From NCBI GenBank assembly GCA_017608345.1, contig JAFCGA010000001.1:97766-161765 (forward strand): a stretch of DNA of 64,000 bases, written 5' to 3'. Numbering within the stretch: position 1 is the first letter of the stretch; each line of letters opens with the position of its first letter. The DNA is from Candidatus Pacearchaeota archaeon (GTDB lineage Archaea > Nanobdellota > Nanobdellia > UBA10117 > JAFCGA01). Position numbers and translations under genes: made by a program. The notes under the pieces are model-generated. The model had not been told where the DNA came from. It did not search any database and saw only the letters and a list, made by a program, of their open reading frames with translations. This document shows, piece after piece, positions 3,748 to 61,273 of the stretch.

Positions 3748-3757
3748 TAACTTTTAT

Positions 3758-16418: not shown

Positions 16419-16796
16419 ATGGGACATACGAGAGGAATAAGCTTCACTGTATCTTTCCCCACATTAGCTAGACTCACAGAGATACCGCAAGAACTCTCTC
16501 AAAGACATGGAGCTATTGATCTAATGAAAGTCATTGGTGAAGAAACACAGGAAATATATGCGTTAGAGAATATGATATTAAATGCTATTTATAGTCCAGT
16601 AGAGCAAGTAAGGACTGAAATCCATAATGCTATTGATCTCTGTCTTTTGGGCACAGTTGAAGATGTAATTATCCGAGATAGACGAATATTTCTAAGTCTA
16701 CAAGCAGAAGGTGCACCTAAGAAGCTAGCTTACTTATGTGATATTCCCAACGAATATATGGATAAAACACAGTATTCTTATGCATCGCAAGTATAG
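16419..16796 (+). CDS. hypothetical protein (125 aa)
   Basis: ORF only; its 3' end overlaps the convergent radical SAM gene by 19 nt. Confidence 0.35.
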   Translation: MGHTRGISFTVSFPTLARLTEIPQELSQRHGAIDLMKVIGEETQEIYALENMILNAIYSPVEQVRTEIHNAIDLCLLGTVEDVIIRDRRIFLSLQAEGAPKKLAYLCDIPNEYMDKTQYSYASQV

Positions 16797-17875
16797 CAGT
16801 GGTTCTTTAGCTTACACGTCGATACAGTTCCGGACATTATTCCCTCTAGATTTTCGATGAACCACTTAAATTCTCGGTCGTGAAAGTTAGTTAGCTCAGC
16901 TTTTACTTGCGAGTAAGGCTTAGTGAAAAGATTAGAAATAATTGAGTGGTTGCAATTTACTGCTTCGAATGAAGCGCACAAATTTAGATCTCCGTTCGGC
17001 TCGATAATAATTCCCGGCCATTTTACTAAATCCGGACAGACGTATTCACTCATGGCTGCTTCGAACTGCTGAGTATAAGCATCAAGTATTCCTTGATTAG
17101 ACAAATATTGCTCAAATCTTCCGAAGGGATAAACTCGCGTGTCAATTGGCGGAATTATTATTTCGATAGCTTTTGTTCCTAGACTGGTTGAATACTCCGT
17201 ACGGTCGTTGATAACATCAAGGTGAACTCCTTCGAATATGGTTCTCTGATTGCCCCAGAAGGTGTTCTCTACCTCTTCTGCTCGCGTAGGGTTCTGCTGA
17301 GAGTAAATGTCTCCTAACAAGGAGATTAATATTTTATCTGAGAACTCCATTGAATTTCTTATCGACTGATTGAATGCCTTTGCTAGCTTTCCAGTATCTA
17401 ACTTATCGTAGTAATGGTGGTACGTTAGCATAATTTCTATGCTGACTTCGCGTTCGATTGAGAATTGCGCTAGCTTATCGATTATCGATGTGTGCTTATT
17501 CTGAAGCCCGAAGGCTAATGTGAATTCATTGATTCCATTATCATACAGAAACTCAAGAATATCAACTATGTCGTGTCCTTCAGAATTATAGATTAAAGGA
17601 TTTCCTCGCCGCCCGAAGTCAACAACGGAGAATATTTTCAGAAACTCGGGGTCGATTGAAGTAAATGAGCTATAGCTCATAACTTCTCCAGCCATATTTG
17701 AATCTGCAACACAATGTAAGCAGGAATGCTCGCACTGATTGCTCGGGGAAATAATCAGTCGTGGGTTTTCAGCGAACAAATCAGATATTTCGGTTACTTC
17801 AGTTGTTAAGTCTGCTTGCGCTCTGAGAACTGTCTGATAGATGGTTTGTAGTTCTGCAGGCGATAAAGAACTCAT
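16778..17875 (-). CDS. radical SAM enzyme with a SPASM/twitch-like C-terminal cysteine domain (putative peptide maturase)
   Basis: It has CEHSCLHC (CX3CX2C) and a GGE-like GRRGNPL. The C-terminus has CPDLVKWPGIIIEPNGDLNLC (C-x14-G-x4-C), VNCNH and STCKLKNHCYTC (C-x5-C-x2-C). Confidence 0.8.
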   Translation of the reverse strand: MSSLSPAELQTIYQTVLRAQADLTTEVTEISDLFAENPRLIISPSNQCEHSCLHCVADSNMAGEVMSYSSFTSIDPEFLKIFSVVDFGRRGNPLIYNSEGHDIVDILEFLYDNGINEFTLAFGLQNKHTSIIDKLAQFSIEREVSIEIMLTYHHYYDKLDTGKLAKAFNQSIRNSMEFSDKILISLLGDIYSQQNPTRAEEVENTFWGNQRTIFEGVHLDVINDRTEYSTSLGTKAIEIIIPPIDTRVYPFGRFEQYLSNQGILDAYTQQFEAAMSEYVCPDLVKWPGIIIEPNGDLNLCASFEAVNCNHSIISNLFTKPYSQVKAELTNFHDREFKWFIENLEGIMSGTVSTCKLKNHCYTCDA

Positions 17876-17876
17876 T

Positions 17877-18242
17877 TTATAAATATCTACAAGGATTTAT
17901 CCCGCCACGACTCAAGCTCATTCTGTACATCCTACAGGGATTTATTCCTCCGCGCGGCGTCAAGTCTCGCATTAACACCTCTAATGATCGGTCCAATTCC
18001 AGCTCTATCCGAGTATCCATTAGGTTTAGCCCCTTCTTTGATATAGTGTTATCTTCTTCTAACACGCCCCTCTGATGCAAGTAATTGACAATTGTATCAT
18101 ATTGTTCCTCTGGGAAAGACTCTTTTGGGGGTAATGCTTCTTTTTGTTTCAGCAAATGGTAGAAATTACCGAATGTGCGTGAATCTATTTCGAGGCGCTT
18201 TAACTCATCCTCAATCGTTAACCTACGCTCTAGTCTCGGCAT
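17877..18242 (-). CDS. precursor-like protein B (121 aa) ending in 2x RGGINPCR
   Basis: The C-terminus is ...TPRGGINPCRMYRMSLSRGGINPCRYL*. The stop lies 1 nt from the rSAM ATG. It is a paralog of the upstream ORF. Confidence 0.55.
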   Translation of the reverse strand: MPRLERRLTIEDELKRLEIDSRTFGNFYHLLKQKEALPPKESFPEEQYDTIVNYLHQRGVLEEDNTISKKGLNLMDTRIELELDRSLEVLMRDLTPRGGINPCRMYRMSLSRGGINPCRYL

Positions 18243-18661
18243 GGTGCAAAACCCCCCGTACTTCCTAAGTATCTATCTTGGCAAGGCGCGAATCCGCCAG
18301 AGTTCCCGGAGAGTACTCTGCTTCTAGCTCTAAACCTATTTTGTTGTTCCATATTTATTTCTCGCTGTCTTTCCAATACCTCCTCCCAAAGCTTATCCTC
18401 TAAGTCATAACGAGCCTTAAATAATTTAGCTGCATCGGGAATTAAGTTTCCATTATCCGCAATTACGTTACTGCTTCTCAGGTAAGCTACAATTGCGTTG
18501 TATTCTCTCACAGACGTTAATTTCGAGATTATGGATTCACACGGAGGGAGCTTTTCTTTAGCTGCTAATTCAGTATAAAAAATCTCGAAGTGATCTACAT
18601 TTATTTCTAGCGCTGTTAGTTTATATAAAATCGTTTTTCTTGCTTCTTCGGGCAATATCAT
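18230..18661 (-). CDS. precursor-like protein A (143 aa) ending in 2x GGFAPC(Q/R)D
   Basis: The C-terminus is ...SGNSGGFAPCQDRYLGSTGGFAPCRD*. It overlaps the next ORF by 13 nt. The N-terminal ~100 aa are paralogous to ORF 17877-18242. Confidence 0.55.
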   Translation of the reverse strand: MILPEEARKTILYKLTALEINVDHFEIFYTELAAKEKLPPCESIISKLTSVREYNAIVAYLRSSNVIADNGNLIPDAAKLFKARYDLEDKLWEEVLERQREINMEQQNRFRARSRVLSGNSGGFAPCQDRYLGSTGGFAPCRD

Positions 18662-34073: not shown

Positions 34074-34085
34074 CCTTTTTAAATT
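34074..34085 (+). promoter_or_regulatory. TATA box CCTTTTTAAATT positioned for the orphan ATG at 34105, not for the intact aIF2-gamma ATG
   Basis: It ends 20 nt upstream of 34105. No comparable box precedes 34231. Confidence 0.45.
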
Positions 34086-34104: not shown

Positions 34105-34158
34105 ATGACAAAAGAATGCCTCCCCGAAATGAATATTGGTCTCATCGGCCATGTTGAG
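34105..34158 (+). pseudogene. orphan duplicate of the first 18 codons of aIF2-gamma
   Basis: ATGACAAAAGAATGCCTCCCCGAAATGAATATTGGTCTCATCGGCCATGTTGAG encodes MTKECLPEMNIGLIGHVE. The gene start encodes MVKECLPEMNIGLIGHVD. Most differences are synonymous. Confidence 0.7.
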
Positions 34159-34230
34159 GTCACTCACTTTTCCTCGTGGGTTTACAACCCGACTCGCAAA
34201 ACCGAGGCCAAAAACCAAAGAGAATAACAA
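34159..34230 (+). repeat. I-type structured insert (72 nt) between the orphan and the intact aIF2-gamma 5' ends
   Basis: GTCACTCACTTTTCC...GCAAAAC...CCAAAAACCAAAGAGAATAACAA shares its terminal blocks with the reverse complement of 61274-61362. It has nested hairpins CCTCG/CGAGG and GGGTT-TAC-AACCC. Confidence 0.6.
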
Positions 34231-35448
34231 ATGGTAAAAGAATGCTTACCCGAAATGAACATTGGCTTAATCGGCCATGTTGATCATGGAAAAACAACCC
34301 TAACTGCGGCGCTCTCTGGCAAGTGGACAGATATTCATTCTGAAGAACTTAAGCGAGGTATCACTATAAAGTTAGGATACGCAGATGTAGACATACGAAA
34401 GTGTCCCAAATGCAAAGCACAGGAAGCTTACACTACTAAAGAAAAATGTCCGAAATGCAAATCAAAGACTAAACTCCTCAGAAAAGTCTCGCTAATCGAC
34501 GCTCCTGGCCACGAAACGCTTATAGCAATCATGATCTCCGGAGCTGCAATTATGGATGGCGCGCTATTAATGATCGCTGCTAACGAGCCTTGTCCTCAGC
34601 CGCAAACCCGCGAGCATTTAGCTGCATTAAAAATTCTAGGAATCAAAAATCTAGTAATTATTCAAAATAAAGTTGATCTAGTAACTAAAGAAGAAGCTAA
34701 GAAAAATCACAAAGCTATAAACAAGTTCGTAACGGAAGCTCTCGGTTTCGAGGTTCCAATCATACCAATCTCTGCTCAGAAACAAGCAAACGTAGACTTT
34801 GTAGTCGAAGCAATTGAAGAACTTTTGAAAGCTCCAGGCAAATGCAGTGGAAATCCAGAAATGGTAATTGCACGTAGCTTCGACATTAACAAACCTGGAA
34901 CTAAAATTCCCGAACTCTGTGGCGGTGTTCTTGGCGGAGCAATTATTTCCGGCGAGTTCAAAGTCGGAGATAAACTAGAGATCAGACCTGGTCCAAAGAA
35001 CGAGAAAGGACAATGGGAACCTATAATAACGAAGCTGAACTCAATAGCTTGCGGTTGTGTATGCGTTAAATCAAAGTGCTCTGGCGGTTCTATAGCCTTT
35101 GCAACCGCTCTAGATCCTTCGATGACAAAAAGCGACTCCCTTGTAGGTAATCTAGTTGGAATTGCTGGCAAAATGCCTCCGGTTTTTCATAACCTCGAAT
35201 TAGAAACAAAGCTCTTCGGTAAAGTTATGGGCGTTAAAGAAGACACACTTATCGCACCAATAAAAGGTAACGAGCCACTTATGATTTCTGTAAGCACCTG
35301 TACAACGCTCGGAATAGTAGCTCAAGCAGGCAAAAAGATCAGATTAAATCTAAAACGCCCAGTATGCGCACATAAAGGAGATAAGGTAGCAATTTCTCGC
35401 CAGATTAGAAATCGCTGGCATTTGATTGGCTTTGGGATTATTAAATAA
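34231..35448 (+). CDS. eif2g: translation initiation factor aIF2 gamma subunit
   Basis: G-domain NIGLIGHVDHGKTTL, DAPGHE, NKVD; zinc ribbon CPKC...CPKC; 405 aa. Confidence 0.95.
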   Translation: MVKECLPEMNIGLIGHVDHGKTTLTAALSGKWTDIHSEELKRGITIKLGYADVDIRKCPKCKAQEAYTTKEKCPKCKSKTKLLRKVSLIDAPGHETLIAIMISGAAIMDGALLMIAANEPCPQPQTREHLAALKILGIKNLVIIQNKVDLVTKEEAKKNHKAINKFVTEALGFEVPIIPISAQKQANVDFVVEAIEELLKAPGKCSGNPEMVIARSFDINKPGTKIPELCGGVLGGAIISGEFKVGDKLEIRPGPKNEKGQWEPIITKLNSIACGCVCVKSKCSGGSIAFATALDPSMTKSDSLVGNLVGIAGKMPPVFHNLELETKLFGKVMGVKEDTLIAPIKGNEPLMISVSTCTTLGIVAQAGKKIRLNLKRPVCAHKGDKVAISRQIRNRWHLIGFGIIK

Positions 35449-35552
35449 AGCGAGCTGATGAGTGAGCGATTATTCCCGAGCGCAGCGAGCAATCTGCTTC
35501 TTTCTTTTTGGACGCCTAGTTTTTCTTTCTTGCAAGAAAGAAAAAATGGCTT
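35449..35552 (-). repeat. C-type structured repeat (C2, inverted orientation) inserted between the two copies of the aIF2-gamma 3' end
   Basis: Its reverse complement aligns with 38573-38670 and 12748-12859. Shared parts are the polypyrimidine/polypurine hairpin (TTTTTCTTTCTTGCAAGAAAGAAAAA), CCAAAAAGAAAG, and GCTCGCTGCGCTCGGGAATAATCGCTCACTCATCAG. Confidence 0.6.
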
Positions 35553-35594
35553 AGAAATCGCTGGCATTTAATCGGATTCGGAATAATTAAGTAA
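35553..35594 (+). pseudogene. orphan duplicate of the last 13 codons plus stop of aIF2-gamma
   Basis: AGAAATCGCTGGCATTTAATCGGATTCGGAATAATTAAGTAA encodes RNRWHLIGFGIIK*, as does 35407-35448. There are 7 differences and all are synonymous third positions. Confidence 0.7.
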
Positions 35595-35602
35595 ACTGGA
35601 TA

Positions 35603-37288
35603 CTATAATCTCTGTGCTGTTCCAGCGCGTAGTTTAAGCGTAACAGGTATTGTTTCTATATATATATAGTTATAATCTATATCTGCAAGCGCAGTGAGCG
35701 TTTGATAGGGCGCACCGCCGAGGTATTCATCATCTACATAAAAATTCAGATAAACTACTTCACTCTTCCCTACTTCGAGTGGTCGCAAATATTCTCGAAG
35801 ATAGCTCTCAGATAATTCATAGTGCTGCAACTTAGGGTACTGATTTCCGGCTACATAAGTCTGTCCAGTTTTTCTAAATTGGCTTCCCGTGCTAACTGCA
35901 GTCACATGTTTTGCAGGCAATACTAAAGTAAGGCTATTAATCGACAACTGATTACTAAAATCCCCAGATTTAAACGCAATCCCTAAATCTTGTCGGTATG
36001 TTGAAGTTGGCTCGTTTTCAACTGCAGGCAAGAAACTATCTGAAGGGTTCCCGCTGGAAAATACACTAGTAAGAAAATCCTTTTTCGAAACTCTTGCCAA
36101 ACCCATTGACAAGTCAATTGTTTTTCCATCGCTAGCTACGTGCGCTTTAGTCTGATCCGCAGTTATTTTAAAGCGATCTGCTGGATTGCCAATATACGAA
36201 GCAGTATCTGTAACAAATAGATTCTTAGAAACTTTCGCACGCGTATTGTGAATCAGTTTGAAAGTTACTTCGAAAGTTCGTAATGGCATCTTGAGAAGAT
36301 CAGACGTCCCAAGTGGGGGATGAGTACATGTAAATCGAGTATCACTTATACTGGTAACGGTGAATGAGTTTTCTCCTTCGAAACCAAAAAGCTCGCAAGT
36401 CCAATCATGTGCTAACTCTGGTGCTGTCGCTAACGGATCTGGATCAATTCCTAATGTCAACATTACGTTCTCATCTGCAAAAGTGCTAATCGCATCTAAC
36501 GTACCGCTAATGCGAATAGGATCGCCAGTAAAAAAATCCACTGGTGCGCCCAAATCATGAATTACCACACCTGCACCGTCATTAACTACTAATTCCGAAG
36601 AGATTTCTCCTGAATCCCATTGCTGACCGGGTCCAACAGTAATTGTCTGCCACATGTTACTTAAATGCCCTTTAGCTGGTCGGAATGCGTTCATCAATCC
36701 AACTTTGGTTTCTACTCCTTCACTACCTATTACTCCCCCAATATAAGTTCCTTCAACAGAAGGCGCAATAAAGAAGATATATACTAAATAAAGTATTCCC
36801 AGAACTATCAAAATAAGTAATAAATGTCTAAAGAAATACCCCGTTTTATGTCCTGCTTCAGCAATTTTCGCTCTATGCTCTTCGCCTGCTTGCTTCCATC
36901 CTGAAGCAAGAGATGACTCTCTCATTAACGCCTTTTCCTTAAATTTAGCTAATCTGGTTTGCTCTTTTTCTTCTTTTTCTTTAACTGGAATCTCCCGAAC
37001 TTGCTCTTCTTCTATTACTTCTTCCTCGGGGTCTTCTCTCGGTTTCCCACCAATCCATGCAAGAGCTTTTGTCCTGGCTTTTTCTTTAAATTCACCTGCG
37101 CCAGCTTTTGCTTTTTCTTTAAATTGGCTTGTACTTGCTCTTACTCGTGTCGGTGCATATTTAGCTCTAGCACCGAATGATCTAAATCTTGCTGTAAATT
37201 TAAGTGCGCCATTACACCATACACAATAATTCTGACCCGCTGGTGTTTCTTTTCCACAATGAGGACAAATCTCAGATTTTTCAATCAT
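35603..37288 (-). CDS. zinc-ribbon / single-pass membrane protein with a large extracellular domain (561 aa)
   Basis: An N-terminal CPHCGKETPAGQNYCVWC is followed by a Lys/Glu-rich linker, the TM helix FFRHLLLILIVLGILYLVYIFFI, and ~380 aa beyond it. Confidence 0.55.
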   Translation of the reverse strand: MIEKSEICPHCGKETPAGQNYCVWCNGALKFTARFRSFGARAKYAPTRVRASTSQFKEKAKAGAGEFKEKARTKALAWIGGKPREDPEEEVIEEEQVREIPVKEKEEKEQTRLAKFKEKALMRESSLASGWKQAGEEHRAKIAEAGHKTGYFFRHLLLILIVLGILYLVYIFFIAPSVEGTYIGGVIGSEGVETKVGLMNAFRPAKGHLSNMWQTITVGPGQQWDSGEISSELVVNDGAGVVIHDLGAPVDFFTGDPIRISGTLDAISTFADENVMLTLGIDPDPLATAPELAHDWTCELFGFEGENSFTVTSISDTRFTCTHPPLGTSDLLKMPLRTFEVTFKLIHNTRAKVSKNLFVTDTASYIGNPADRFKITADQTKAHVASDGKTIDLSMGLARVSKKDFLTSVFSSGNPSDSFLPAVENEPTSTYRQDLGIAFKSGDFSNQLSINSLTLVLPAKHVTAVSTGSQFRKTGQTYVAGNQYPKLQHYELSESYLREYLRPLEVGKSEVVYLNFYVDDEYLGGAPYQTLTALADIDYNYIYIETIPVTLKLRAGTAQRL

Positions 37289-38526: not shown

Positions 38527-38572
38527 AATTTAACTTAAGGTGGTTCCAAATAAATACTTTTCCCCTGTCAAT

Positions 38573-38670
38573 CCCTTTTCTTTGCGAAAGAAAAGGTCTA
38601 GACGTTACCCCAAAAGAAAGCAGTTAACTCCGCTTCGCTCCGAATTAAACGCTCACTCATCAGTTCGCTC
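38573..38670 (+). repeat. C-type structured repeat (C3) in the divergent intergenic region upstream of the primase
   Basis: A perfect 10-bp hairpin CCTTTTCTTT-GCG-AAAGAAAAGG (38574-38596) is followed by CCCCAAAAGAAAG, CTCCGCTTCGCTCCGAATTAAACGCTCACTCATCAG. Confidence 0.6.
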
Positions 38671-38712
38671 TAAACTACCATATTCTTATTAAACTTTCTT
38701 ACTACTAGCAGT

Positions 38713-40068
38713 ATGATGGTTCGCCAATCGGAAGTTATTAAGCATTATTCCAATCCGGCGGTTGCTGCTGAGCTAATTAGAGTATCACAAGATCGAGAGG
38801 TTAGTGTTCAACTGCGGAGTAAGGGTTACGGTAAAAGACCCTCAGTGTTGCAGTTTCCAGCTGAAGTCAAGGATCTGGTTAGATCTGGAGCTACTTCGTT
38901 TCATATGTCAGAAGAAAGATGGTCGGATCCTATGCAATTGCGGACAGATATGAATAAACGGGAGCTGAACGATCTTCGTATTGGCTGGGATTTCATAATC
39001 GATATTGATTGTCCTTGGTTTGAATACTCGACTATTGCCGCTTCGGTGTTGCTCGACGCGATTAAACAACATGGAGTGAAAGCTGCCCTTAAATTCTCAG
39101 GTAATCGTGGCTGGCATATTGGAATTCCGTTTGAAGCTTTTCCCGCAGAGATTGGTCGGCGTAAAACTGAATCTCTTTTTCCAGCAATTACTGCTACGAT
39201 TATAACTTACTTAAAGCAGTATACTGAAAGCTCGATGAGCGACAGAATAATTGAATTTGAGGGCAGTGATGTGAAAAATATTCTAAAACGTACGGGTAGG
39301 AAAAAAGAAGATTTTATGGTATCGGGCAAATTAGACATATTCACGCTTATCGAACTAGACCTTGCCCTCAGCTCCTCACGGCACTTGATAAGAGCACCGT
39401 ATTCAATACACGAGAAGACTGGTCTTATTTCGATTGTTATTGATCCGGATAAGCTGAACTACTTTAAGCGAGAGCATGCTAAACCTGAAAATATAGCGGA
39501 AATTAATGACTCTTTTCTAAATCCTTCAAAGATTGCGGCTGGTTCTGCTTCGCAATTATTGACGCAGGCTCTTGATTTTGAAGCACAAGAGAAAAGTAAA
39601 GCTAATTCTGAAAAAGTTACTGTGGAGTTCGAGCCGTTCGAAGGCAAGGTGCCCAAAGAGAAATTTCCTCCGTGCGTAAAGAATATACTAGCAGGACTAG
39701 AAGACGGTCGTAAAAGATCATTATTTGTTTTGATGAATTTCTTAAAGTCGGTCGGCTGGCCTTGGCCAGATATTGAAAATGAGGTCAGAGAATGGAACTT
39801 AAAGAACAAGCCGCCGATGAAAGACGGCTATCTTAATAGCCAGCTAAAATGGTCCAAGCAACAGAGTTCGGTGTTTCCTCCACCTAATTGCGCAGATGTT
39901 GGCCACTACAAAGATACTGGAATCTGCAAGCCAGACAAGTTCTGCGAGAAAATCAAGAATCCGCTGACGTATGTGAAAAGACAGCTAAGATTTAGTGCTA
40001 CTCAACCTAAACGTAGAAAAAAGAAGAAGTCAGAAGCTCCAGTAAAATCAGCACCAATAAAAACGTGA
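38713..40068 (+). CDS. archaeo-eukaryotic DNA primase, fused PriS-like catalytic domain plus PriL-CTD-like domain
   Basis: WDFIIDIDC and FSGNRGWHIGIPF are PriS catalytic blocks. The C-terminal FPPCVKNILAGLEDGRKRSLFVLMNFLKSVGW resembles the PriL Fe-S domain PPC(M/I) helix region. The tail is basic. Confidence 0.7.
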   Translation: MMVRQSEVIKHYSNPAVAAELIRVSQDREVSVQLRSKGYGKRPSVLQFPAEVKDLVRSGATSFHMSEERWSDPMQLRTDMNKRELNDLRIGWDFIIDIDCPWFEYSTIAASVLLDAIKQHGVKAALKFSGNRGWHIGIPFEAFPAEIGRRKTESLFPAITATIITYLKQYTESSMSDRIIEFEGSDVKNILKRTGRKKEDFMVSGKLDIFTLIELDLALSSSRHLIRAPYSIHEKTGLISIVIDPDKLNYFKREHAKPENIAEINDSFLNPSKIAAGSASQLLTQALDFEAQEKSKANSEKVTVEFEPFEGKVPKEKFPPCVKNILAGLEDGRKRSLFVLMNFLKSVGWPWPDIENEVREWNLKNKPPMKDGYLNSQLKWSKQQSSVFPPPNCADVGHYKDTGICKPDKFCEKIKNPLTYVKRQLRFSATQPKRRKKKKSEAPVKSAPIKT

Positions 40069-49546: not shown

Positions 49547-52500
49547 ATGAAAAAGGCAATTAAGAAAGTAATATCTATAATTATTATAGCTGCAGTGTTT
49601 ATTTTAGTAGTACCAATCATAACTGCAGGTGCAACTGAGGCAAGTATTGTTGTAAGTGAAGTTCAAACAGATAGTACTGTTGGTGCAGGAGGCACAGCAG
49701 ATGATTGGGTCGAACTGTATAACCCAACAGATTCTGCGGTGATTTTAGATGGCTGGTCAATCCAAGAAGGATTAAGTGATGGATCTTCTTTTTATCGGAA
49801 AGAACTAATTGGAACAATCCCCGCACAGGGTTATTTCTTAATCGTTAGAAGTGATGCAGATTCTTCACTAACAGACCTAGCGGATGTAATTGCAGCAACT
49901 AGTTTTTCGCTAACAGACGATAATGTTATTTATTTAGTTAATAATAATGAAGATATTACTGGTGCAGATGATCCAGATATTGTTGATTTAGTTGGATTTG
50001 GAGATTCTACCATTTTTGAAGGCACTGGCACTGCAGCTAATCCTGCTGAAAGTGGAAGCATAGAAAGAAAATCTGGAGAGATTCATTCCGAAGGAAAGGG
50101 AAATGGATGGGATAGTAATGATAATTCTGCTGACTTCTTTGTCTCAACTCCAAATCCACAGAATACGGCGAGCACTTCTGAAGCGCCGCCGCTAGACGTC
50201 TGTAAGACAGGATGTGTTTATTCAACAATCCAATCTGCAATAGACGCTGCAACAGAAGGAGACACAATTAATGTTGCTGCTGGGACTTATACTGAAGACC
50301 TAACAATTGATATAGGAATTACTATGTCTGGTTCAGACGCGTCGGAAGTAACTGTAAATGGTGAACATACAATATCTTCAGACGATGTAACTTTGGAAGA
50401 AGTTACTTTTAATATAGCTGCAGATACTGCAGGAATATTAATTGATTCATCTTCTTCTACAATAAATAATATTATAATTACAGATTCTGTTTTTGATTTT
50501 CCAAGTAATCCGGGAACCGGAGTTGTAGGAATTATACTTGGTGGATATTCTTCACCAAATAAGGTATCAAATATATATATCAACAATAACGTATTCAATG
50601 GACCGGATAACAAAAACTGCAATCCTTGGAAAATCGGTGGAGGATTCGGTAGCCCGGTCTCTTGCGAAGTTCAAGACGTAGACTTTGAAAATAACGCTGT
50701 TGATAGATGTTCAACGCCAATAAATTTACAGGATAGTAATATTGATGACCTTTTAATAAATAATAATGTATATACAAACACAGACGGAGTTCTATATGTA
50801 TGGGCTCAAGATGGATCAGCACCATCCGGAGCTTTGTCTAACTTTGTATTTACAAACAACGATGTTGATTCTACGAATTCTTATGGTGTAGCTTTCTTCG
50901 ATAATGATCTAAATGGAGATACTTTTACCGATACGAACTTCGGAACAGGCAATAGGATCAATAATAATGAATTCGTCGGAATTACTGAAACATATGGATT
51001 AAAATCTCTTAGCATGCTAGCAGATCTAACTACTTATGAATTAGATGCAGAAAACAACTGGTGGGGCTGCAATGAAGGTCCTGGAGAAGCTGGCTGTGAT
51101 GCGGTAAGTGGAACTGTTGATTACACTCCATGGACAGTTCAAGCTGAAGACACTATCTCAACTACTAATGGAATAGCAGAAACAGTTGATACAGCTGGAA
51201 CAGCCGCGGGACTCACTATAACTACCATCGGAGATCAATCAGGAACAGTAACTATCCAGCAATCTAGCGAAGAATATCATGGCGGATTCGGAGCTACAGC
51301 ACTCGGAAAGTTCATCAATATTGAATCAACAATAGCTAATGAAGATATCTCCGAAGTTGAGATAAGAATTAGTTATACTGATGATGAGCTTACTGCAATC
51401 GGACTAGATGAAACTTCTCTGAAGCTATACTGGTGGAATTCTGCTAGCGAAGCATGGGAACTTCTAGGAAGTACGGGTGTTAATACAACTGGAAATTATG
51501 TGTGGGCCATCACAAACCACTTCAGCGATTTTGGAGTTGGGGGTGACCCAGATACTGACGCGCCAGTTATAACTGATGTTTACACTTCACCAAAATACGC
51601 TAGTCTAGCTGATAAGCTAGTGACAATATTTGCTACAATTGCAGATGGTGGAAGCGGAGTGAAACATTCTTTCTTATATTATCAAATCGGAGACGAAGAT
51701 TTACAAAATATTACTTTCAGTGGTCCACTAACTGGCGGAAGCGCGGGAATATTCCATGGAAATCCTCAAGATGGAATTGTAGTAAATTACCATATTAATT
51801 CTACAGATAATGTAGATAACAGCGCAAGATATCCTGGCTCGGGCTGGCTAAGCTATACTTATGATGGCACAGATCCAGTCACAACCTTGACAATCGACGA
51901 TCCGAAATACGGCTCGACATTCATTAGCTCTTCAACAAGTATCGAGCTAAGCTGCACTGATGCGACTAGCGGCTGCAACAAAACATACTATCGCATTAAT
52001 GAAGGTAGCGTTACTGAATATACTACTCCTTTCACCGTCGCTAATGAAGATGGAGATCATACAATACATTATTACAGCGTAGATAATGCAACAAATGAGG
52101 AAAACTCAACACCGGAAGTAATAACTCTAGATAATAGCGCCCCAATCACCACAGATAATGCAGCAAGTGATTGGCAAGGCGCCGACCTAGTCGTAGGTCT
52201 TACACCAACAGATGGCTCAGGAAGCGGTGTAAACATTACTAAATATTGTGTTGACACAACCGGAGCGTGTACTCCAGCTACGCAAGGTATTTCTGCATCA
52301 GTTACCTGCGCTGCAGATAGCGTTTGTGAAAGTCAATATGTAAATTATCAATCGCAAGACAATCTTGGACAATGGGAAACTGCGCATATGTCAAGTATAA
52401 TTAAAATAGACAAAGAAAAGCCAGATACAACCGACGATGCTTCGAGTGATTGGCAAAATACGAATGCAACTGTCTCTCTTACCTGCGAGGATCATGAAGC

Positions 52501-55500
52501 TAGCGGGTGCCAAGTAACATATTATACAACTGACGGGAGCGACCCAACAACTGGATCTGCTCAAGGTACTGAGATTCTAGTAACAGCAGACGGAACAAGT
52601 ACGGTAAAGTACTTTTCAGTTGATAATGTCGGCAATTCAGAAGCAGTGCAAACTGCAGCAAATACCGTTAAGATCGATAGAACTGTTCCTACCATTACAG
52701 AGGATTATGCGAATGATGGAGTATGGGTAAATGAAGCTCAGGATGTCACTTTAGATCCAACCGATACCGGTGGTTCTGGAATTGGAGATGTAGAATATTG
52801 CGAAGGTGAGGGATGTGCTCCTAATATCGTGCTTGCTGCACCATACTTACTGTCTTACCTGGCAGACAAAAACACAATAGTAAGATACAAAGTAACAGAC
52901 AGGGCTACAAATCCAAGCGAAATTGATGAGTTTAACCTCAAGCTTGATATGACTATACCAACAATCACGGATAACTACGAACATGACGGTACATGGGTAT
53001 CAGAAAACCAAACTGTCACTCTTTCTCCAGCAGATGCTCTTAGTGGGATAAACGTTGTTAAATACTGCACCGGAGCAGCATGTACACCCGACATTACAAC
53101 AACAGACTACGCTATTGAGTTTAACGGAGATCAGGACACCATCTTAAGATACCAAACTTGGGACAACGCAAGTAATCCTAGCGAAATCGGAGAAGTTAAT
53201 ATTAAAATAGACACAACTGGACCAACAATTATCGATGACTATGCAAATGATGCTGTATGGGTAAACACAGATCAGACGATTACTCTAACTCCCAGTGATT
53301 CAGGTGGCTCAGGAATAAAAGAAGTAAAATATTGTAGCGGAGCTGAGTGCACACCTACAAATGTTCTAGCAGCACCTTATCAATTAGCTTACACTACTAA
53401 TCAAGATACAATTGTTAGGTATATTGTTGTAGATAATGCTAACCGAGAATCTGGGATCGGAGAATTTAATGTTAAGATTGACAAGACTATACCAACAGTT
53501 ACTGAGGATTACGGGAATGATGGTGTATGGGTAACTACCGATCAGACAGTTAATCTAACTCCTGCTGACGAAGGTGGCTCAGACATCGACGTCGTTGAAA
53601 TATGTTACAGTGCTGGGTGCACTCCATCTGACGAACTAGAGGAATACGCAATTTCCTTCACCGAAGATATAAACATGATGGTGAGATATCAAGCATGGGA
53701 TAATGCAGACAATCCATCGTTGATTGGCGAATTCAAGATCATGCTAGATAAGCATGCGCCAACATTCATAACAAATGAAGGAACAGACGGAGAAGCTGTA
53801 ACTAGCGATATAATCAATGTGAACGTTGATGATACTTACTTAGATGAAAGTTCATTAAATTATGGATTTAGCGCAGATATTAATTGCGAGGAAGAAGTTG
53901 CATGGGAAGAGGGATTTACAAATAACGTTGATTTCACAATCACTGGAGATCATACAGATTATTTATGCGTAAAAGCAGCGGATCTTGCAGGAAATATTGG
54001 CTATCATCTAGTTGGACAGTTGAATGTGGATAATTCAAATCCAACTTTGACAAGTGTATCTATTATGTCCAGTAATACGAACAATGCATATGCGCAAGTT
54101 GAAGATACAGTTACAATTGCATTTACTGCAAGTGAAGATCTTAAAGCGACTCCTGACGTCACAATTGATGGCAATACTGCAACAATAACGCAGCAAGAAA
54201 CTGCTAGCACTTGGATAGCAACTCGAACAATGCAAACTGGAGATACAGCTGGAGTTGTAACTTTCGCTATTGACTTCAGTGATCTTGCAGGTAATGATGG
54301 CACTCAAGTAACTGATGTTACTGACGAGAGCTCAGTCACGTTCGACGAAACTAATCCTGTTGGAGACCTCGCAGACATTCCGGTGGAATGGCAGAATACT
54401 GACGCTACGCTAACGCTATCTTGCACTGATTCAGAAGGAAGCGGATGCAATTCTAATGAATTCTACCTGACAGTTGTGCCGATTGGGGATTTTGGGGTGG
54501 ACATGGCTATAAGCAACGGTGGATGTACTCCTATCGACCAGTATACTGAACCAGTATTCGTATCTGAGCATTCAACAGTTTGTTGGAGAGTAACAGATAA
54601 CGCAGGGAATGTCCATTCGGGTTCAGCAGAAATCACTGTTGATGAAATTGATCCAGATCTAGAAGATGATTATGGCGAGAATAATGGAATGTGGGTAAAC
54701 AGCGACCAGACGATCACTTTATTCCATTCAGATAGCGGGAATTCAGATATAGATGACGTTCTAATCTGCTACGGATCTGAATGTGATCCGGATATTGACG
54801 GTACTGAACTAAATGAACCATATACAATCGACTTTAACAACGATACTGATACGGTTTTGAGATATCAAGCGTGGGATAATGCGGGTAATCCTTCAGGGGT
54901 TGGTGAAATAGACATTATGATAGACAAAACTATTCCTACAACAAATGATGATTATGCCTACGATGCGGTTTGGATAAATACAGACCAAACCATTACGCTA
55001 ATTCCTTATGACGAACTAAGCGGGGTGGATGAAGTGCTATACTGTATCGGAAGTGAATGCGAACCAGATCTGCTGATTAACGAACCTTATGATGTACCTT
55101 TCTCGGGAGACACTGTAGCAACTTTAAGATATCTAACAATTGATGCTGCAGGCAATTCTGGCGAAACAGAAGAAGTTATTGTAAAGATTGACGAGACCAT
55201 ACCAACGATTGCGGATGATTACCTCTTCGACGACATTTGGGTTAATACAAATCAATTAGTAACTCACACACCTACAGACGGTCTAAGTGATATAAAAGAA
55301 GTCAGATACTGCAATTCTGGTCCTGATTGCGAGCCAGACACACTATTAACTGGGCTCTATCAGATAACTTATGTAACTGACCAGGAAACTACGGTGAGAT
55401 ATCGAGCATGGGATAATGCAGACAATCCGTCTGTAGTTGGTGAATACATCGTCAAAATTGATACTGTATCTCCAGATGTAACTAATTCCGGACCTAGTGG

Positions 55501-56050
55501 AGAACTTGATTACAGCACGCCTACGCTAACCGTAACAACTGATAAGGAAACAATCTGCAAATATGACACTAATCTGAAGTCCTTTGATAATATGGCTAAT
55601 TACTTAGGTTCATCAGAGACGCTGGGGCTAGCACATACAGCTAACTTGAACCTATATGATGGTAGCTATACCTACTATATCCGATGCAGAGACAAAGCAA
55701 ACAATGAAATATCAACTACTGTAACCTTCACGATTGATACCGCAGCTAACTATGGATTTACTGAAAATTTAGTACCTACTTGGGATACTTTCACTCTCCC
55801 TAAATTCGTGCTAGAAGATCTCGGCTACACAACTCCTGAACTAAGAAGCCCTGAAAGTATATTAGCCTCCATCGCAAGCAATTATGAGATAATCTGGTAT
55901 TATGACGGAGTTAATTGGGTATCTTACAAACCAGATACACCTGAATGGACTAATGACTTAATTGAATTTAATGACATGCAGAGCAATCCTTATTGGATAA
56001 CAATGATCAATGAAGATAGACTTGAGATAGCCGATTTAAATGAAATATAG
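49547..56050 (+). CDS. giant surface/adhesin-like protein (2167 aa): N-terminal anchor, lamin-tail-domain-like module, beta-helix region, and arrays of ~90-aa Ig-like repeats
   Basis: The N-terminal TM or signal is followed by VVSEVQTDS...DDWVELYNPTDSAVILDGWSI (LTD signature) and NNN-rich beta-helix turns. There are at least 7 well-conserved plus at least 3 diverged repeats of the type (K/M)IDxTxPTxxDDYxxDxVWVNxDQTxTLxPxDxxSGIxxVxYCxGxxCxP...xRYxAWDNAxNPS. Confidence 0.8.
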   Translation: MKKAIKKVISIIIIAAVFILVVPIITAGATEASIVVSEVQTDSTVGAGGTADDWVELYNPTDSAVILDGWSIQEGLSDGSSFYRKELIGTIPAQGYFLIVRSDADSSLTDLADVIAATSFSLTDDNVIYLVNNNEDITGADDPDIVDLVGFGDSTIFEGTGTAANPAESGSIERKSGEIHSEGKGNGWDSNDNSADFFVSTPNPQNTASTSEAPPLDVCKTGCVYSTIQSAIDAATEGDTINVAAGTYTEDLTIDIGITMSGSDASEVTVNGEHTISSDDVTLEEVTFNIAADTAGILIDSSSSTINNIIITDSVFDFPSNPGTGVVGIILGGYSSPNKVSNIYINNNVFNGPDNKNCNPWKIGGGFGSPVSCEVQDVDFENNAVDRCSTPINLQDSNIDDLLINNNVYTNTDGVLYVWAQDGSAPSGALSNFVFTNNDVDSTNSYGVAFFDNDLNGDTFTDTNFGTGNRINNNEFVGITETYGLKSLSMLADLTTYELDAENNWWGCNEGPGEAGCDAVSGTVDYTPWTVQAEDTISTTNGIAETVDTAGTAAGLTITTIGDQSGTVTIQQSSEEYHGGFGATALGKFINIESTIANEDISEVEIRISYTDDELTAIGLDETSLKLYWWNSASEAWELLGSTGVNTTGNYVWAITNHFSDFGVGGDPDTDAPVITDVYTSPKYASLADKLVTIFATIADGGSGVKHSFLYYQIGDEDLQNITFSGPLTGGSAGIFHGNPQDGIVVNYHINSTDNVDNSARYPGSGWLSYTYDGTDPVTTLTIDDPKYGSTFISSSTSIELSCTDATSGCNKTYYRINEGSVTEYTTPFTVANEDGDHTIHYYSVDNATNEENSTPEVITLDNSAPITTDNAASDWQGADLVVGLTPTDGSGSGVNITKYCVDTTGACTPATQGISASVTCAADSVCESQYVNYQSQDNLGQWETAHMSSIIKIDKEKPDTTDDASSDWQNTNATVSLTCEDHEASGCQVTYYTTDGSDPTTGSAQGTEILVTADGTSTVKYFSVDNVGNSEAVQTAANTVKIDRTVPTITEDYANDGVWVNEAQDVTLDPTDTGGSGIGDVEYCEGEGCAPNIVLAAPYLLSYLADKNTIVRYKVTDRATNPSEIDEFNLKLDMTIPTITDNYEHDGTWVSENQTVTLSPADALSGINVVKYCTGAACTPDITTTDYAIEFNGDQDTILRYQTWDNASNPSEIGEVNIKIDTTGPTIIDDYANDAVWVNTDQTITLTPSDSGGSGIKEVKYCSGAECTPTNVLAAPYQLAYTTNQDTIVRYIVVDNANRESGIGEFNVKIDKTIPTVTEDYGNDGVWVTTDQTVNLTPADEGGSDIDVVEICYSAGCTPSDELEEYAISFTEDINMMVRYQAWDNADNPSLIGEFKIMLDKHAPTFITNEGTDGEAVTSDIINVNVDDTYLDESSLNYGFSADINCEEEVAWEEGFTNNVDFTITGDHTDYLCVKAADLAGNIGYHLVGQLNVDNSNPTLTSVSIMSSNTNNAYAQVEDTVTIAFTASEDLKATPDVTIDGNTATITQQETASTWIATRTMQTGDTAGVVTFAIDFSDLAGNDGTQVTDVTDESSVTFDETNPVGDLADIPVEWQNTDATLTLSCTDSEGSGCNSNEFYLTVVPIGDFGVDMAISNGGCTPIDQYTEPVFVSEHSTVCWRVTDNAGNVHSGSAEITVDEIDPDLEDDYGENNGMWVNSDQTITLFHSDSGNSDIDDVLICYGSECDPDIDGTELNEPYTIDFNNDTDTVLRYQAWDNAGNPSGVGEIDIMIDKTIPTTNDDYAYDAVWINTDQTITLIPYDELSGVDEVLYCIGSECEPDLLINEPYDVPFSGDTVATLRYLTIDAAGNSGETEEVIVKIDETIPTIADDYLFDDIWVNTNQLVTHTPTDGLSDIKEVRYCNSGPDCEPDTLLTGLYQITYVTDQETTVRYRAWDNADNPSVVGEYIVKIDTVSPDVTNSGPSGELDYSTPTLTVTTDKETICKYDTNLKSFDNMANYLGSSETLGLAHTANLNLYDGSYTYYIRCRDKANNEISTTVTFTIDTAANYGFTENLVPTWDTFTLPKFVLEDLGYTTPELRSPESILASIASNYEIIWYYDGVNWVSYKPDTPEWTNDLIEFNDMQSNPYWITMINEDRLEIADLNEI
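52670..53749 (+). repeat. four tandem 264-270-nt coding repeats (repeat block A) inside the giant protein gene
   Basis: Unit starts at 52670, 52940, 53204 and 53474 (KID-T-PT...). Each unit contains one Cys pair (for example KYCSGAECTP). Confidence 0.75.
54641..55462 (+). repeat. three further tandem ~265-280-nt coding repeats (repeat block B) of the same family
   Basis: Units start near 54641, 54920 and 55184, separated from block A by ~900 nt of non-repeat sequence. Confidence 0.7.
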
Positions 56051-59186: not shown

Positions 59187-60086
59187 ATGAAAAAAATAAT
59201 CTTTGTTTTAGCGCTACTTGCATTTATACCGCTAGCTAGCGCGGCATTGAATACTGCAGAGCTAGGCAATGTTCTTGTCGAAGAGACAAAATATGATCCT
59301 TATCCTGCTGAGCCAGGTAAATATATAACGGTTTGGATTAGCGTAGACAATCAAGGATCAACAACGATGGATAATATGTTCTTCAAGTTTGATCCAGATT
59401 ATCCTTTTCAGCTAAATCCTGGACAAAGCGGAATAGTAAGCACTGGGAAGCTGCCTCCAGGTCAAGATAAGCTAGTTGAGTATACGCTAAGAGTTGACGA
59501 AGAGGCCATGGAAGGCAGTTATGAGCTTGATTTAAAACTATGTTATGGTAGCGATTGTTCTAGCTGGGCGAGAACTTATAGCCTTCAGATATCTGTCCGT
59601 ACCGGCGGAGAGCCAAAAGTCGAGCTAGGATTAGAAGAAACCGACGTATTCAATGCAGGTAAATTAGGTGAATTCACACTTAATATTGTAAATCGAGGTC
59701 AATTAGATACTAAATTCCTAAGAGTTGCAGTTCAGGAGTCAGATAACTATGAGATTATCGGGCCTGCGGAGAAATATATTGGAGAGCTAGAATCAGACGA
59801 CTTCGAGACTGCTCAATATCAAATATTCATTGAGAATAATATCGGAAGCGAAGAAAGTGAAATGTTAGAAGTTCCGATTAAAGTAGAATACAGCGATGAG
59901 AATAATAAAGACTATTCAGATTTCCAGACAATATATCTAAAGTCATATTCTACAGAAGATTTAGAAAAGATGCATCTCGCGGCTAGCAGTCTCACTTGGA
60001 TTTGGGTTCCAATTGTAATTATTATAGGTATTAGTTATTTCATCTATATACGGGTTAAAAAGAAGAAACAGCAGAAAAAGGCATAA
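59187..60086 (+). CDS. secreted protein with a C-terminal TM anchor, encoded between the ABC ATPase and permease (299 aa)
   Basis: The ATG at 59187 lies just after the ATPase stop. It has a signal peptide MKKIIFVLALLAFIPLASA and the C-terminal WIWVPIVIIIGISYFIYIRVKKKKQQKKA. Confidence 0.6.
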   Translation: MKKIIFVLALLAFIPLASAALNTAELGNVLVEETKYDPYPAEPGKYITVWISVDNQGSTTMDNMFFKFDPDYPFQLNPGQSGIVSTGKLPPGQDKLVEYTLRVDEEAMEGSYELDLKLCYGSDCSSWARTYSLQISVRTGGEPKVELGLEETDVFNAGKLGEFTLNIVNRGQLDTKFLRVAVQESDNYEIIGPAEKYIGELESDDFETAQYQIFIENNIGSEESEMLEVPIKVEYSDENNKDYSDFQTIYLKSYSTEDLEKMHLAASSLTWIWVPIVIIIGISYFIYIRVKKKKQQKKA

Positions 60087-61273
60087 TGATCGAGTATCTA
60101 AAGATAGCCGTAAGGAATATTTCTCAGCGGAAACTTAGAAGCTGGCTAACTATTATTGGTGTAATTATCGGTATTGGCGCGATTATTTCTCTTATTTCCA
60201 TTTCAAACGGAATGGAGCATGCTATTACAGAACAGTTTGAATCATTTGATACCGATCTTATAACTATTACTCCTTCTAATTTTAGAGGTCCGGGAAGTTC
60301 CTCAGGGGAATTCACAGATAAAGAAGTTGATGCGATTCGTAAAATCTCTGGACTAAAACATGTAACTCCGATGATTATGAGTAGTGCAAAAATCAGTTTT
60401 CATAACCAAGATAAATATTTATCTGTCATGGCGTACGAGGCCACTTCGGAGTCAGAAGATATGTGGGAGGATTTTGGGTTCGAGATAAATAAAGGCCGCT
60501 TTCCGCGAGAAGGTCAAGGTAAAGTAGTTGGGTTGGGCGCAAGGGCTGCAACTGATTTATTTGATGATGAACTTCACGTTAGAAATAATATCTACATTGA
60601 TGATATTAAATTTAAGGTTACGGGAATAGCCGATGAAATAGGCAATGCTCAAGATGACAATGCTATATTCATGCCCCTTGATACTGCTAAAGAGTTATTC
60701 AATAAAACAAATTATGGATTTATTATTGCTGTCGTAAACGAAGGCGTTGATGTAGATAAAATGGCTGATAGAGTTGAGAAAAAGATGAGTCGGCTTCGCG
60801 ATGAAGAAGAATTTCAAGTCATGACTGCTACTGAGATGCTAGCAACAGTCGGTACGATCCTCGGAATATTACAGCTCGTATTAGTGGGAATCGCAGGGAT
60901 TAGCTTGTTGGTCGGAGCAGTTGGTATTATGAATACGATGTACACATCAGTTATGGAACGAACGCGAGAGATTGGCGTGATGAAAGCCATCGGAGCTACA
61001 AACAGATCGATTATGACTATATTCTTATTTGAAGCCGGCATTATTGGGATAATTGGTGGAACAGCTGGTGCAGCGATAGGTACAGGGATTGCTCAGGTAG
61101 TCGGATTCGTAGCTTCAAATATGGCTTTACCGCTACCATTAAAAGTAATTATCGAATGGAAACTAATCGGCTACTGTATTGCATTTGCTTTCGGATTGGG
61201 CGCCTTAAGCGGATTCTTGCCTGCTAGGTCAGCTGCTAAAATGAAGCCTGCGGATAGTCTTAGGTATGAATAA
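60086..61273 (+). CDS. ABC transporter permease, MacB/FtsX family
   Basis: It has an N-terminal TM helix, a large extracytoplasmic domain, and a C-terminal FtsX-type three-TM bundle (GAVGIMNTMYTSVMERTREIGVMKAIGA). The ATG shares one base with the upstream stop. Confidence 0.85.
   Translation: MIEYLKIAVRNISQRKLRSWLTIIGVIIGIGAIISLISISNGMEHAITEQFESFDTDLITITPSNFRGPGSSSGEFTDKEVDAIRKISGLKHVTPMIMSSAKISFHNQDKYLSVMAYEATSESEDMWEDFGFEINKGRFPREGQGKVVGLGARAATDLFDDELHVRNNIYIDDIKFKVTGIADEIGNAQDDNAIFMPLDTAKELFNKTNYGFIIAVVNEGVDVDKMADRVEKKMSRLRDEEEFQVMTATEMLATVGTILGILQLVLVGIAGISLLVGAVGIMNTMYTSVMERTREIGVMKAIGATNRSIMTIFLFEAGIIGIIGGTAGAAIGTGIAQVVGFVASNMALPLPLKVIIEWKLIGYCIAFAFGLGALSGFLPARSAAKMKPADSLRYE

Follow-up and report, generated by a model that had tools for sequence, protein, structure and literature searches.

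Duplicated gene ends around small hairpin-bearing inserts in the aIF2-gamma gene and a permease gene of a DPANN archaeon

Genomic islands and prophages that integrate at one end of a gene may carry their own version of the end that they cut off. In dusA, islands replace the 5′ end of the target and leave the original end behind as the outer boundary of the inserted DNA, with attL and attR sites that match imperfectly (PMC4482086), and a corresponding restoration of the 3′ end is known for trmE and tRNA genes (PMC4482086, PMC8409611). A related architecture is found in the rhs, contact-dependent inhibition (CDI) and type VI secretion (T6SS) systems, in which an incoming C-terminal tip and its flank are placed after a conserved stretch of the gene, while the displaced orphan tip keeps a piece of that stretch (PMC2935791, PMC5361080). 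Here, we describe three duplicated gene ends in a 64,000-nt stretch of DNA from Candidatus Pacearchaeota archaeon (GenBank assembly GCA_017608345.1, contig JAFCGA010000001.1, positions 97,766–161,765), which will be referred to as the window. Two of them are the 5′ and 3′ ends of the gene for the translation initiation factor subunit aIF2-gamma, and the third is the 3′ end of a gene for a MacB/FtsX permease. In each case, the functional gene end and its second copy are separated by an insert, denoted X (73 nt, aIF2-gamma 5′ end), Y (104 nt, aIF2-gamma 3′ end) or Z (89 nt, permease 3′ end). We use the term orphan for the untranslated, displaced gene ends, which are A′ (aIF2-gamma 5′), B′ (aIF2-gamma 3′) and the permease 3′ copy.

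As in the gene-end-restoring islands, the insert supplies the functional end, the original end forms the outer boundary, the direct repeats are imperfect but share an identical core, the target is a conserved housekeeping gene, and both 5′ and 3′ variants occur. A preliminary description of this DNA had likened the 3′ end of aIF2-gamma to the attL and attR flanks of an integrating element that carries a replacement gene end, and the anatomy bears out the resemblance: direct repeats with an identical core are present, insert-borne sequence completes the gene, and the native end is displaced. By analogy, the arrangement may be regarded as a miniature variant of the known gene-end-replacing insertions. 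The islands, however, span 10–100 kb and encode their own integrase, whereas the window inserts are 73–104 nt long and non-coding (316 nt with a cargo gene in the related locus L026, described below), and no integrase was found. Furthermore, one module family in the window is associated with different cores at different genes, unlike the islands. Inserts that lack an integrase but are flanked by att sites, with a recombinase presumed to act in trans, are also known as cis-mobilizable elements (CIMEs; PMC5704250). These are kilobase-scale derivatives of known integrative and conjugative or integrative and mobilizable elements with recognizable att sites, whereas no parent element is known for the window inserts.

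The functional aIF2-gamma gene (34231–35448, + strand) encodes a 405-aa protein that matches PF00009 and PF09173 and has thousands of homologues, the nearest relative being 77% identical. Its last 13 codons plus the stop codon (35407–35448) recur at 35553–35594, both copies encoding RNRWHLIGFGIIK followed by a stop. At its maximal extent the repeat is 45 nt long (35405–35449 and 35551–35595), with 84% identity and z = 12.1 in the protein-level scan of gene ends described below. Re-reading of the sequence confirmed exactly what had been reported at the outset, namely an insert of 104 nt and seven differences between the copies, all of them silent and all at third positions. The differences are distributed bimodally: a 19-nt core is identical, after which 7 of 8 codons differ. 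The functional copy thus consists of the core (35405–35423) and a remainder plus stop codon (35424–35448), taken below to be imported, and orphan B′ (35551–35595, + strand), the native last 13 codons plus stop, consists of the core TTAGAAATCGCTGGCATTT (35551–35569) and its own remainder (35570–35594). The left part of insert Y (35449–35552, + strand, 104 nt) contains GAGCG repeats and CTGATGAGTGAGCG, while the right part contains T-runs and a 12-bp hairpin (35520–35545, z = −3.0) that ends 7 nt before B′. The orphan had been described as untranslated in its present context. This holds, since the start-to-start spacing of 146 nt puts it out of frame, behind a stop codon and without a start of its own; nor does any overlapping gene account for it.

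The first 17 codons of aIF2-gamma are also duplicated (34105–34157 and 34231–34283; 53 nt, 85% identity, z = 18.5), around the 73-nt insert X. Eight nucleotide differences lead to a single amino-acid difference (T2V), with MTKECLPEMNIGLIGHV encoded by the orphan and MVKECLPEMNIGLIGHV by the functional copy. Orphan A′ (34105–34157, + strand) comprises the native first 17 codons, MTKECLPEMNIGLIGHV, plus GA, and ends in the identical core ATCGGCCATGTTGA (34144–34157). In the functional copy, the putatively imported remainder (34231–34269) precedes the core (34270–34283). Insert X (34158–34230, − strand) belongs to a family of hairpin modules shared with Z, and its GGAAAAGTGAGTGA end abuts A′. The functional ATG lies 126 nt downstream of the orphan ATG. 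Read through X, the orphan forms an upstream open reading frame (ORF) of 40 codons (34105–34227, + strand), whose TAA (34225–34227) is situated 3 nt before the functional ATG. This gap falls within the range of −8 to +10 nt over which termination–reinitiation is supported in archaea (PMC6728339, PMC10666635).

The MacB/FtsX permease gene occupies 60086–61273 (+ strand), and its nearest relative is 67% identical. The last 24 nt of the gene (61250–61273), encoding ADSLRYE and the stop codon, are repeated at 61363–61386 (+ strand), past the 89-nt insert Z (z = 6.5). Both copies contain the 20-nt core GCGGATAGTCTTAGGTATGA, at 61250–61269 in the functional end, where it is followed by A-TAA; in the orphan it is followed by G-TAA. 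Insert Z (61274–61362, + strand) consists of a left hairpin plus a T6 run and of the module shared with X (61305–61351), the hairpin of which, CTCACTTTT/AAAAGTGAG (z = −3.5), adjoins the orphan. The last 9 nt of Z (ATGAATCTA) would encode Leu (“MNL”) at a position where Pro is invariant, and therefore do not represent a conserved copy of the gene end. The last 14 nt of the permease orphan double as the 3′ end of a convergent gene (61373–61969, − strand). Where the orphan is unconstrained, it displays non-synonymous decay, consistent with drift.

A protein-level scan of every gene end in the window yielded these three duplications only. A fourth candidate, the C-terminus of 18230–18661, proved to be part of a tandem paralogue pair with no orphan end, and 82 more gene ends scanned in the loci of relatives contained no further duplicated end. 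The 3′ end of aIF2-gamma had been treated as an isolated site; it is instead one of three in the window, with a fourth found at the same permease site in L026.

The two aIF2-gamma repeats combined contain 15 nucleotide differences but only one amino-acid difference over 30 codons, where 8.9 would be expected under drift. In simulations that started from two identical copies, with only synonymous changes allowed in the functional one and free drift in the orphan, none of 20,000 runs matched the observed pattern. For the 3′ repeat alone, the probability of no amino-acid change given seven nucleotide changes is 0.0002 under a neutral orphan, and for the 5′ repeat alone the corresponding probability under neutral decay is 0.0036. 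A recent duplication followed by neutral decay of the aIF2-gamma orphans is rejected by these simulations, and the signature of coding constraint upholds the proposal, made from the 3′ repeat, that both copies evolved as coding sequence, one of them in a diverged functional allele. The two alleles are close relatives at the protein level, as both share the residues KEC... and ...GIIK, which are absent in the 119 other homologues listed. At the same time, synonymous sites in the non-core part of the 3′ repeat are near saturation (proportion of synonymous differences, pS, 0.91) despite the near-identical protein. A perfectly identical core of 14, 19 or 20 nt lies at the junction side of each repeat in the window (24 nt in L026). 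At the 3′ end of aIF2-gamma, none of the four core codons differ, compared to 7 of 8 in the remainder (Fisher p = 0.01, hand calculation). In all three cases, the homology ends exactly at the ATG or the stop codon, which is expected if the copies stem from genomes with unrelated flanks. To judge from the sequences, the combination of core and remainder would be the expected trace of a crossover within the core, by which the resident gene was joined to an incoming copy whose flanks were unrelated. Repeats that differ at synonymous positions only are also a sensitive means of recognizing recent recombination across diverged lineages in organisms with few population data.

The surroundings of the copies indicate which of them is native. 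Of 61 genes in the window, 37 have TATA-like hexamers at the peak position of −30 to −27 from the start codon and only 9 have a Shine–Dalgarno-like motif, from which it follows that most mRNAs appear to be leaderless. Orphan A′ has TATA-like hexamers (TTTTAAAT) starting at −28 to −26 relative to 34105, and the TATA-like box TTTTTAAAT (34076–34084, + strand), 21–29 nt upstream of the orphan ATG, would be the native aIF2-gamma promoter. No TATA-like hexamer occurs within the 60 nt upstream of the functional ATG (34231). At the other end of the gene, B′ lies 8 nt from the stop codon of the convergent gene 35603–37288 (− strand), whose orthologue in locus L001 of a relative (36% identity, E = 1e-70) directly overlaps the stop codon of aIF2-gamma, where there is no Y and no second copy. 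With A′ at the promoter, and B′ and the permease orphan at convergent neighbors, the orphans are seen to be native ends in their native context, and the functional ends next to the inserts would be the imports. This reverses the polarity assumed in the preliminary description, in which the orphan was the imported copy. The aIF2-gamma loci L001 and L003 and the permease loci L026, L034 and L035 belong to relatives, not to strains of the window organism; likewise, the target sites without Y in L001–L004 and without Z in L034 and L035 come from distant relatives. Codon usage in the body of aIF2-gamma is typical of the genome, and a comparison of codon usage could not distinguish native from imported copies.

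Transcription probably still starts leaderless at the orphan ATG (34105), in which case the 40-codon upstream ORF would be translated and aIF2-gamma would be reached by reinitiation, as a second cistron. The gene would thus appear to be an exception among mostly leaderless genes, produced by the insertion, and it offers a concrete, testable example of a leaderless gene turned into a reinitiation-dependent second cistron.

The duplication at the permease site recurs in L026, a locus from a separate sample, where the permease (P0123) is 67% identical to that in the window. The L026 working copy, ACCTGCTGATTCTCTAAGATTCGA (24 nt), is followed by ATGA, and the orphan consists of the same 24 nt followed by GTAA, 316 nt downstream. 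Both the window and L026 have the insertion point at one and the same place within the last permease codon (GA|G TAA). The cores are identical within each genome but different between the genomes. The L026 insert ends with TTTTGGCCTCGCTTTTCTTAAAAGCGAG, which is significantly similar to the reverse complement of X (0/2000 shuffles) and forms a module that adjoins the orphan. Its hairpin, CTCGCTTTT/AAAAGCGAG, differs from that of Z (CTCACTTTT/AAAAGTGAG) by a compensatory A-T to G-C change. The permease genes of L034 and L035 are intact, ending in GAA TAA with no second copy. Since the downstream genes are different in all four permease loci, the insertions in the window and in L026 look independent.

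The L026 insert also contains an ORF for an 80-aa Cys-rich protein (L026:5195–5437). It has no Pfam family but belongs to a very large and unusually conserved family, 70–80% identical across Bacteroidota/Ignavibacteria-like, Chlorobi, Patescibacteria and DPANN contigs. We considered whether it might be a protein of the element. However, it is a widespread protein in ordinary bacterial contexts, and was judged to be cargo rather than a recombinase. The L026 permease itself has an apparent deletion of ~29 nt and a frameshift (L026:5070–5130) upstream of the conserved C-terminal LPAR...ADSLRFE, and is either a pseudogene or the product of an assembly error. A separate feature of these loci is that unrelated convergent genes read antisense through the permease 3′ end or the orphan (L035:2660–2697, L026:5456–5502 and window 61373–61386), such that their C-termini (e.g., RILKN or RILEN) are dictated by the permease ADSLR(Y/F)E codons.

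Reverse-complemented X and Z align collinearly over two blocks, each significant on its own (0/2000 and 2/2000 shuffles). The family can be described by the structured pattern T-run-G-R-Y-CTC-R-S-TTTT ... AAAAGYGAG, also written TTTTGRYCTCRSTTTT-N(1-31)-AAAAGYGAG, which matches X (34163–34213, − strand) and Z, and nothing else in the window (0 expected). In viral contigs the pattern occurred in one Microviridae lineage only, which was judged to be a chance match. In both X and Z, the GTGAGTGA end abuts the orphan and the opposite end abuts the functional gene end. The module is antisense to the host gene in X and sense in Z, while its polarity relative to the orphan and functional copies is equal. 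Its orientation thus follows the DNA rearrangement and not transcription, which argues for a DNA-level mechanism. In all four inserts (X, Y, Z and that of L026), 4–11 nt separate the end of the hairpin from the orphan. The right half of Y is laid out in the same way as X and Z, with T-runs and a hairpin, but its similarity to X, Z and the L026 module is not significant; we therefore count two insert families. For the same reason, a single X–gene–Y unit bounded by inverted related modules was discarded.

Insert Y had been assigned to a dispersed repeat family. This is true in a weak sense, as one further copy, Y2 (38540–38672, − strand), is present in the window, between divergent genes, with 74% identity to Y and a hairpin of z = −2.1; scans of metagenomes, genomes and viral contigs yielded no true copies. 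In the metagenome and genome collections (neither of which contains the source genome) and in the viral collection, the Y motif gave either 19–20-nt chance matches in high-GC bacteria or nothing. Neither family matches Rfam, and X, Y and Z have no terminal inverted repeats (TIRs). For Y as a known RNA, there was no Rfam match at gathering or permissive thresholds and no tRNA, and inspection of its CUGAUGA motif revealed no hammerhead and no convincing C/D box. The inserts resemble miniature inverted-repeat transposable elements (MITEs), repetitive extragenic palindromic (REP) sequences and Correia elements in being small, non-coding, hairpin-forming and multi-copy, and in that they can supply terminator-like signals. 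They differ from MITEs in the lack of TIRs and of a short target-site duplication of fixed length, and in having two copies per family in 64 kb. The flanking repeats, unlike those of MITEs, are 24–53 nt long, gene-specific and partly diverged, with an identical part of variable length (14–24 nt). Integron attC core sites (RYYYAAC/GTTRRRY) were not seen at the module ends, and there is no IntI-type integrase among the window ORFs. The inserts also differ from PATEs of the IS200/IS605 type: only the hairpin on the orphan side is common to them, flanking repeats are present, and no TnpA or TnpB is encoded in the window.

Together, these observations suggest a displacement of gene termini at the DNA level, tied to the small hairpin modules, an explanation to which we would give an even chance of being correct. 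The incoming unit would comprise the core, the remainder of the gene end from a diverged but closely related allele, and a non-coding module of 73–104 nt. It would recombine into the resident gene inside the perfectly identical core, presumably through an enzyme that acts in trans, so that the imported copy becomes the working gene end and the native end is pushed outward. The displaced orphan would stay attached to its native flank, that is, the promoter at a 5′ end or the convergent neighbor at a 3′ end. The resulting geometry would be that of attL and attR around a target-restoring island, or of the Campbell-type insertion of a small unit. If this is true, the “bring your own gene end” strategy of large islands also works at ~100 nt, a scale below the detection of gene callers and mobile-element finders, and the case concerns a universally essential initiation gene in a reduced DPANN genome. 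Y and Z would have brought T-runs and hairpins into places where two convergent genes natively meet or overlap.

Several observations weigh against such a displacement. The autonomous relatives with an integrase or endonuclease that the preliminary description had asked for were found neither in the window nor in viral contigs. The inserts are too short to code for an integrase themselves, Pfam scans of the ~57 window ORFs revealed no integrase, transposase, homing, splicing or other nuclease, and the viral contigs contained no attP-like copy of the aIF2-gamma 3′ core, no Y motif and no autonomous relative. Y2 has no flanking repeat, target duplication or orphan end, and only 2–3 members of each family are known. 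If the unit passed through a double-stranded circular intermediate, the circle would measure 113–146 bp, which is very small. From gene to gene, the X/Z family is found with different cores that agree at ~8–9 of 14 positions (by eye), which would be unusual for a site-specific recombinase. The probability that two of three events fall in one gene is ~0.025 if they are independent (hand calculation), which hints at the import of a single whole allele. Finally, the case for a recent import is a statistical one, the nearest aIF2-gamma being 77% and the nearest permease 67% identical.

A more far-reaching version of the displacement, which we put forward tentatively and consider unlikely, is that X/Z and Y represent undescribed miniature mobile modules of DPANN archaea. 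Such modules would spread between related genomes through 14–24 nt of identity at gene ends, presumably mobilized in trans by an enzyme encoded elsewhere, carrying with them recoded gene termini by which the host gene stays intact. They would rewire expression, turning a leaderless essential gene into a second cistron that depends on reinitiation and putting terminators between abutting genes. They might also compete for the P-loop site with the bulge-helix-bulge (BHB) mini-introns described below, which in sister lineages occur together with an adjacent LAGLIDADG gene.

The main rival to a module-tied displacement requires no dedicated element. In homology-facilitated illegitimate recombination (HFIR), whether by one-ended break repair or by template switching with congeneric donor DNA, a donor strand anchored in the conserved gene end would run into the donor flank, seen here as X, Y or Z. 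Its far end would then be joined illegitimately a few nucleotides upstream in the recipient, duplicating a short recipient core. The two ends of aIF2-gamma might even reflect one import of a whole donor allele, with both heterologous flanks resolved alike. We consider HFIR unlikely. The same mechanism has been proposed for C-terminal displacement in rhs, CDI and T6SS (PMC2935791, PMC5361080), and the architecture of those systems, with a gene body, a new tip plus flank and a displaced old tip, is matched at all three window sites. HFIR accounts for recipient-derived identical cores, for homology that ends at the boundaries of coding sequences, for the missing recombinase and for the involvement of both ends of one gene, and the variable core lengths (14–24 nt) suit it better than the fixed stagger of a transposase. 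The known displaced tips, on the other hand, are different toxins with immunity genes and lead to diversification, whereas in the window the same peptide is replaced, at 5′ as well as 3′ ends, in an essential translation factor and with a tiny hairpin module. Moreover, HFIR predicts an arbitrary donor flank, while the same hairpin module is found at the X, Z and L026 junctions, so that one family is present at three junctions, which involve two genes and two lineages, in a constant polarity and with a hairpin that invariably ends 4–11 nt from the orphan. The permease insertion point, too, is the same in the window and L026. HFIR typically deletes recipient DNA rather than duplicating it, and X has no promoter, unlike a native donor upstream region. 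A replacement in one step, in which a foreign cassette X–aIF2-gamma–Y was brought in through two unrelated illegitimate junctions and the entire working gene is foreign, would be nested and parsimonious, with a single event for two orphans that are equally undecayed. We nevertheless regard it as improbable. Identical cores at both junctions would be unexpected (~1e-2 to 1e-3, hand calculation), X has a homologue, Z, at a gene unrelated to aIF2-gamma, and its hairpin end falls exactly at the junction. Nor do X and Y form a related pair of inverted modules at the termini. The genome-typical codon usage of the gene body also speaks against a foreign gene, although a congeneric donor would look alike.

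No donor is needed if the ends were duplicated in situ, as a long target-site duplication or by slippage when the module inserted, and the copies then diverged while both remained under selection through BHB splicing or alternating excision of DNA. In support of this, the two closest relatives that bear introns have BHB-type mini-introns at exactly the P-loop position of X, the permease cores match within a genome but not between genomes, and the removal of an insert plus one repeat would preserve the reading frame. We find this, too, improbable, and to about the same degree as the one-step replacement. B′ is preceded by a stop codon and lacks a start, X and Z are oppositely oriented relative to transcription, and the window has no counterpart of the exon–exon outer helix of L001 and L003. 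When the window duplications were scanned for BHB motifs, the scores stayed at background, albeit with a scanner that discriminates poorly. Long independent evolution should also have altered KEC and IIK instead of leaving an identical core beside saturated synonymous divergence, and the unconstrained permease orphan does show non-synonymous decay. The least probable explanation, which we consider very improbable indeed, is an assembly artefact, formed by a chimeric join of two co-occurring strains in the metagenome assembly. The repeats do differ as strain variants would, and cores of 19–20 nt are near k−1 of small k-mers. However, unique structured inserts lie between the copies at three sites in one 245-kb contig. 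The reading frames, the position of the promoter and the 3-nt spacing between the upstream-ORF stop codon and the ATG are all coherent. A strain switch in the assembly graph should yield a switch and not a duplication around novel sequence, and the permease site of L026, which was assembled independently from a different sample, shows this architecture together with the module.

The aIF2-gamma genes of L001 (77% identity) and L003 (69%) are interrupted exactly at GH|VDHGKT, by 33 nt with an in-frame TAA in L001 (L001:2555–2587) and by 31 nt causing a frameshift in L003 (L003:5016–5046). Both genes are truncated by gene callers because of these BHB-like mini-introns. The unconstrained minimum free energy folds have a helix-bulge-helix-bulge-helix layout in both cases. 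The outer helix between exons 1 and 2 (UGGUCUA/UAGACCA) has 7/7 and 6/7 Watson–Crick pairs in L001 and L003, respectively, compared to 3–5 scattered pairs in intact alleles. The folds also contain a 4-bp central helix (UUGG/CCAA) and a 3-nt 5′ bulge, while the inner hairpins are unrelated in sequence. In silico, the ORF becomes intact again if each strand is cut 2 nt 3′ of the central helix. Going by their predicted folds, the inserts qualify as candidates for BHB introns, here in a DPANN gene that codes for a protein. The established BHB-spliced mRNAs are only those of cbf5 in Crenarchaeota, with introns of 16–44 nt, and one Haloferax 5′ UTR (PMC2738675, PMC7714728). The L001 and L003 inserts resemble the archaeal cbf5 introns in their length, hBHBh′ fold and restored ORF, but neither aIF2-gamma nor DPANN is among the reported cases. 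Confirmation would extend archaeal pre-mRNA splicing beyond cbf5. The window inserts are unlike these introns, with a duplicated exon end and no convincing BHB. The scan found only background-level candidates with a scanner that is weak even on positive controls, the outer helix is missing, and the orientation to transcription, which should be fixed for introns, is opposite in X and Z. Within the ambiguity of its 14-nt core, X coincides in its P-loop position with the inserts of L001 and L003, and orphan A′ carries the exon-1 helix sequence of L003 (TGGTCTC). The coincidence may stem from a hot spot that both kinds of insert share in the gene's most conserved DNA, from a target of a homing endonuclease, or from the displacement of an ancestral intron in the lineage of the window. 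In annotation, orphan gene ends and P-loops with short interruptions of this kind are easily misread.

Directly upstream of aIF2-gamma exon 1 in L001, and in frame with it, there is a 456-aa ORF (L001:1192–2562) with two LAGLIDADG-like motifs that scores exactly at the Pfam LAGLIDADG_3 cutoff. The pairing of a free-standing homing endonuclease with an endonuclease-less intron is known as “collaborative homing”, and the layout in L001 is reminiscent of it.

The window represents an AT-rich archaeal chromosome (39% GC) with genes for an MCM-lid protein, a fused PriS-PriL primase, GINS, aIF2-alpha and L44e, among others, and homologues of its proteins are labelled Woesearchaeota or Nanoarchaeota. 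The fused primase is one 451-aa protein (38713–40068) that matches the families of both the small and the large primase subunit. On the minus strand, the region 16778–18661 contains tandem small paralogues (17877–18242 and 18230–18661) with repeated C-terminal GG(F/I)xPC(R/Q) motifs. The adjacent gene encodes 365 aa, including a CxxxCxxC motif, and its product matches no Pfam family; this may be a peptide-precursor and maturase cluster. A 71-nt direct repeat (3185–3255 and 3742–3812, 77% identity) surrounds a small ORF (3276–3545) with a weak match to DUF7387, and each copy of the repeat contains two palindromes, CCAGAAAT...ATTTCTGG and AAAACTTAC..GTAAGTTTT. Lastly, a 2167-aa ORF (49547–56050) contains internal repeat families of ~170 nt and 71 nt with spacings of 270, 534 and 537 nt, and probably encodes a large repetitive surface protein.

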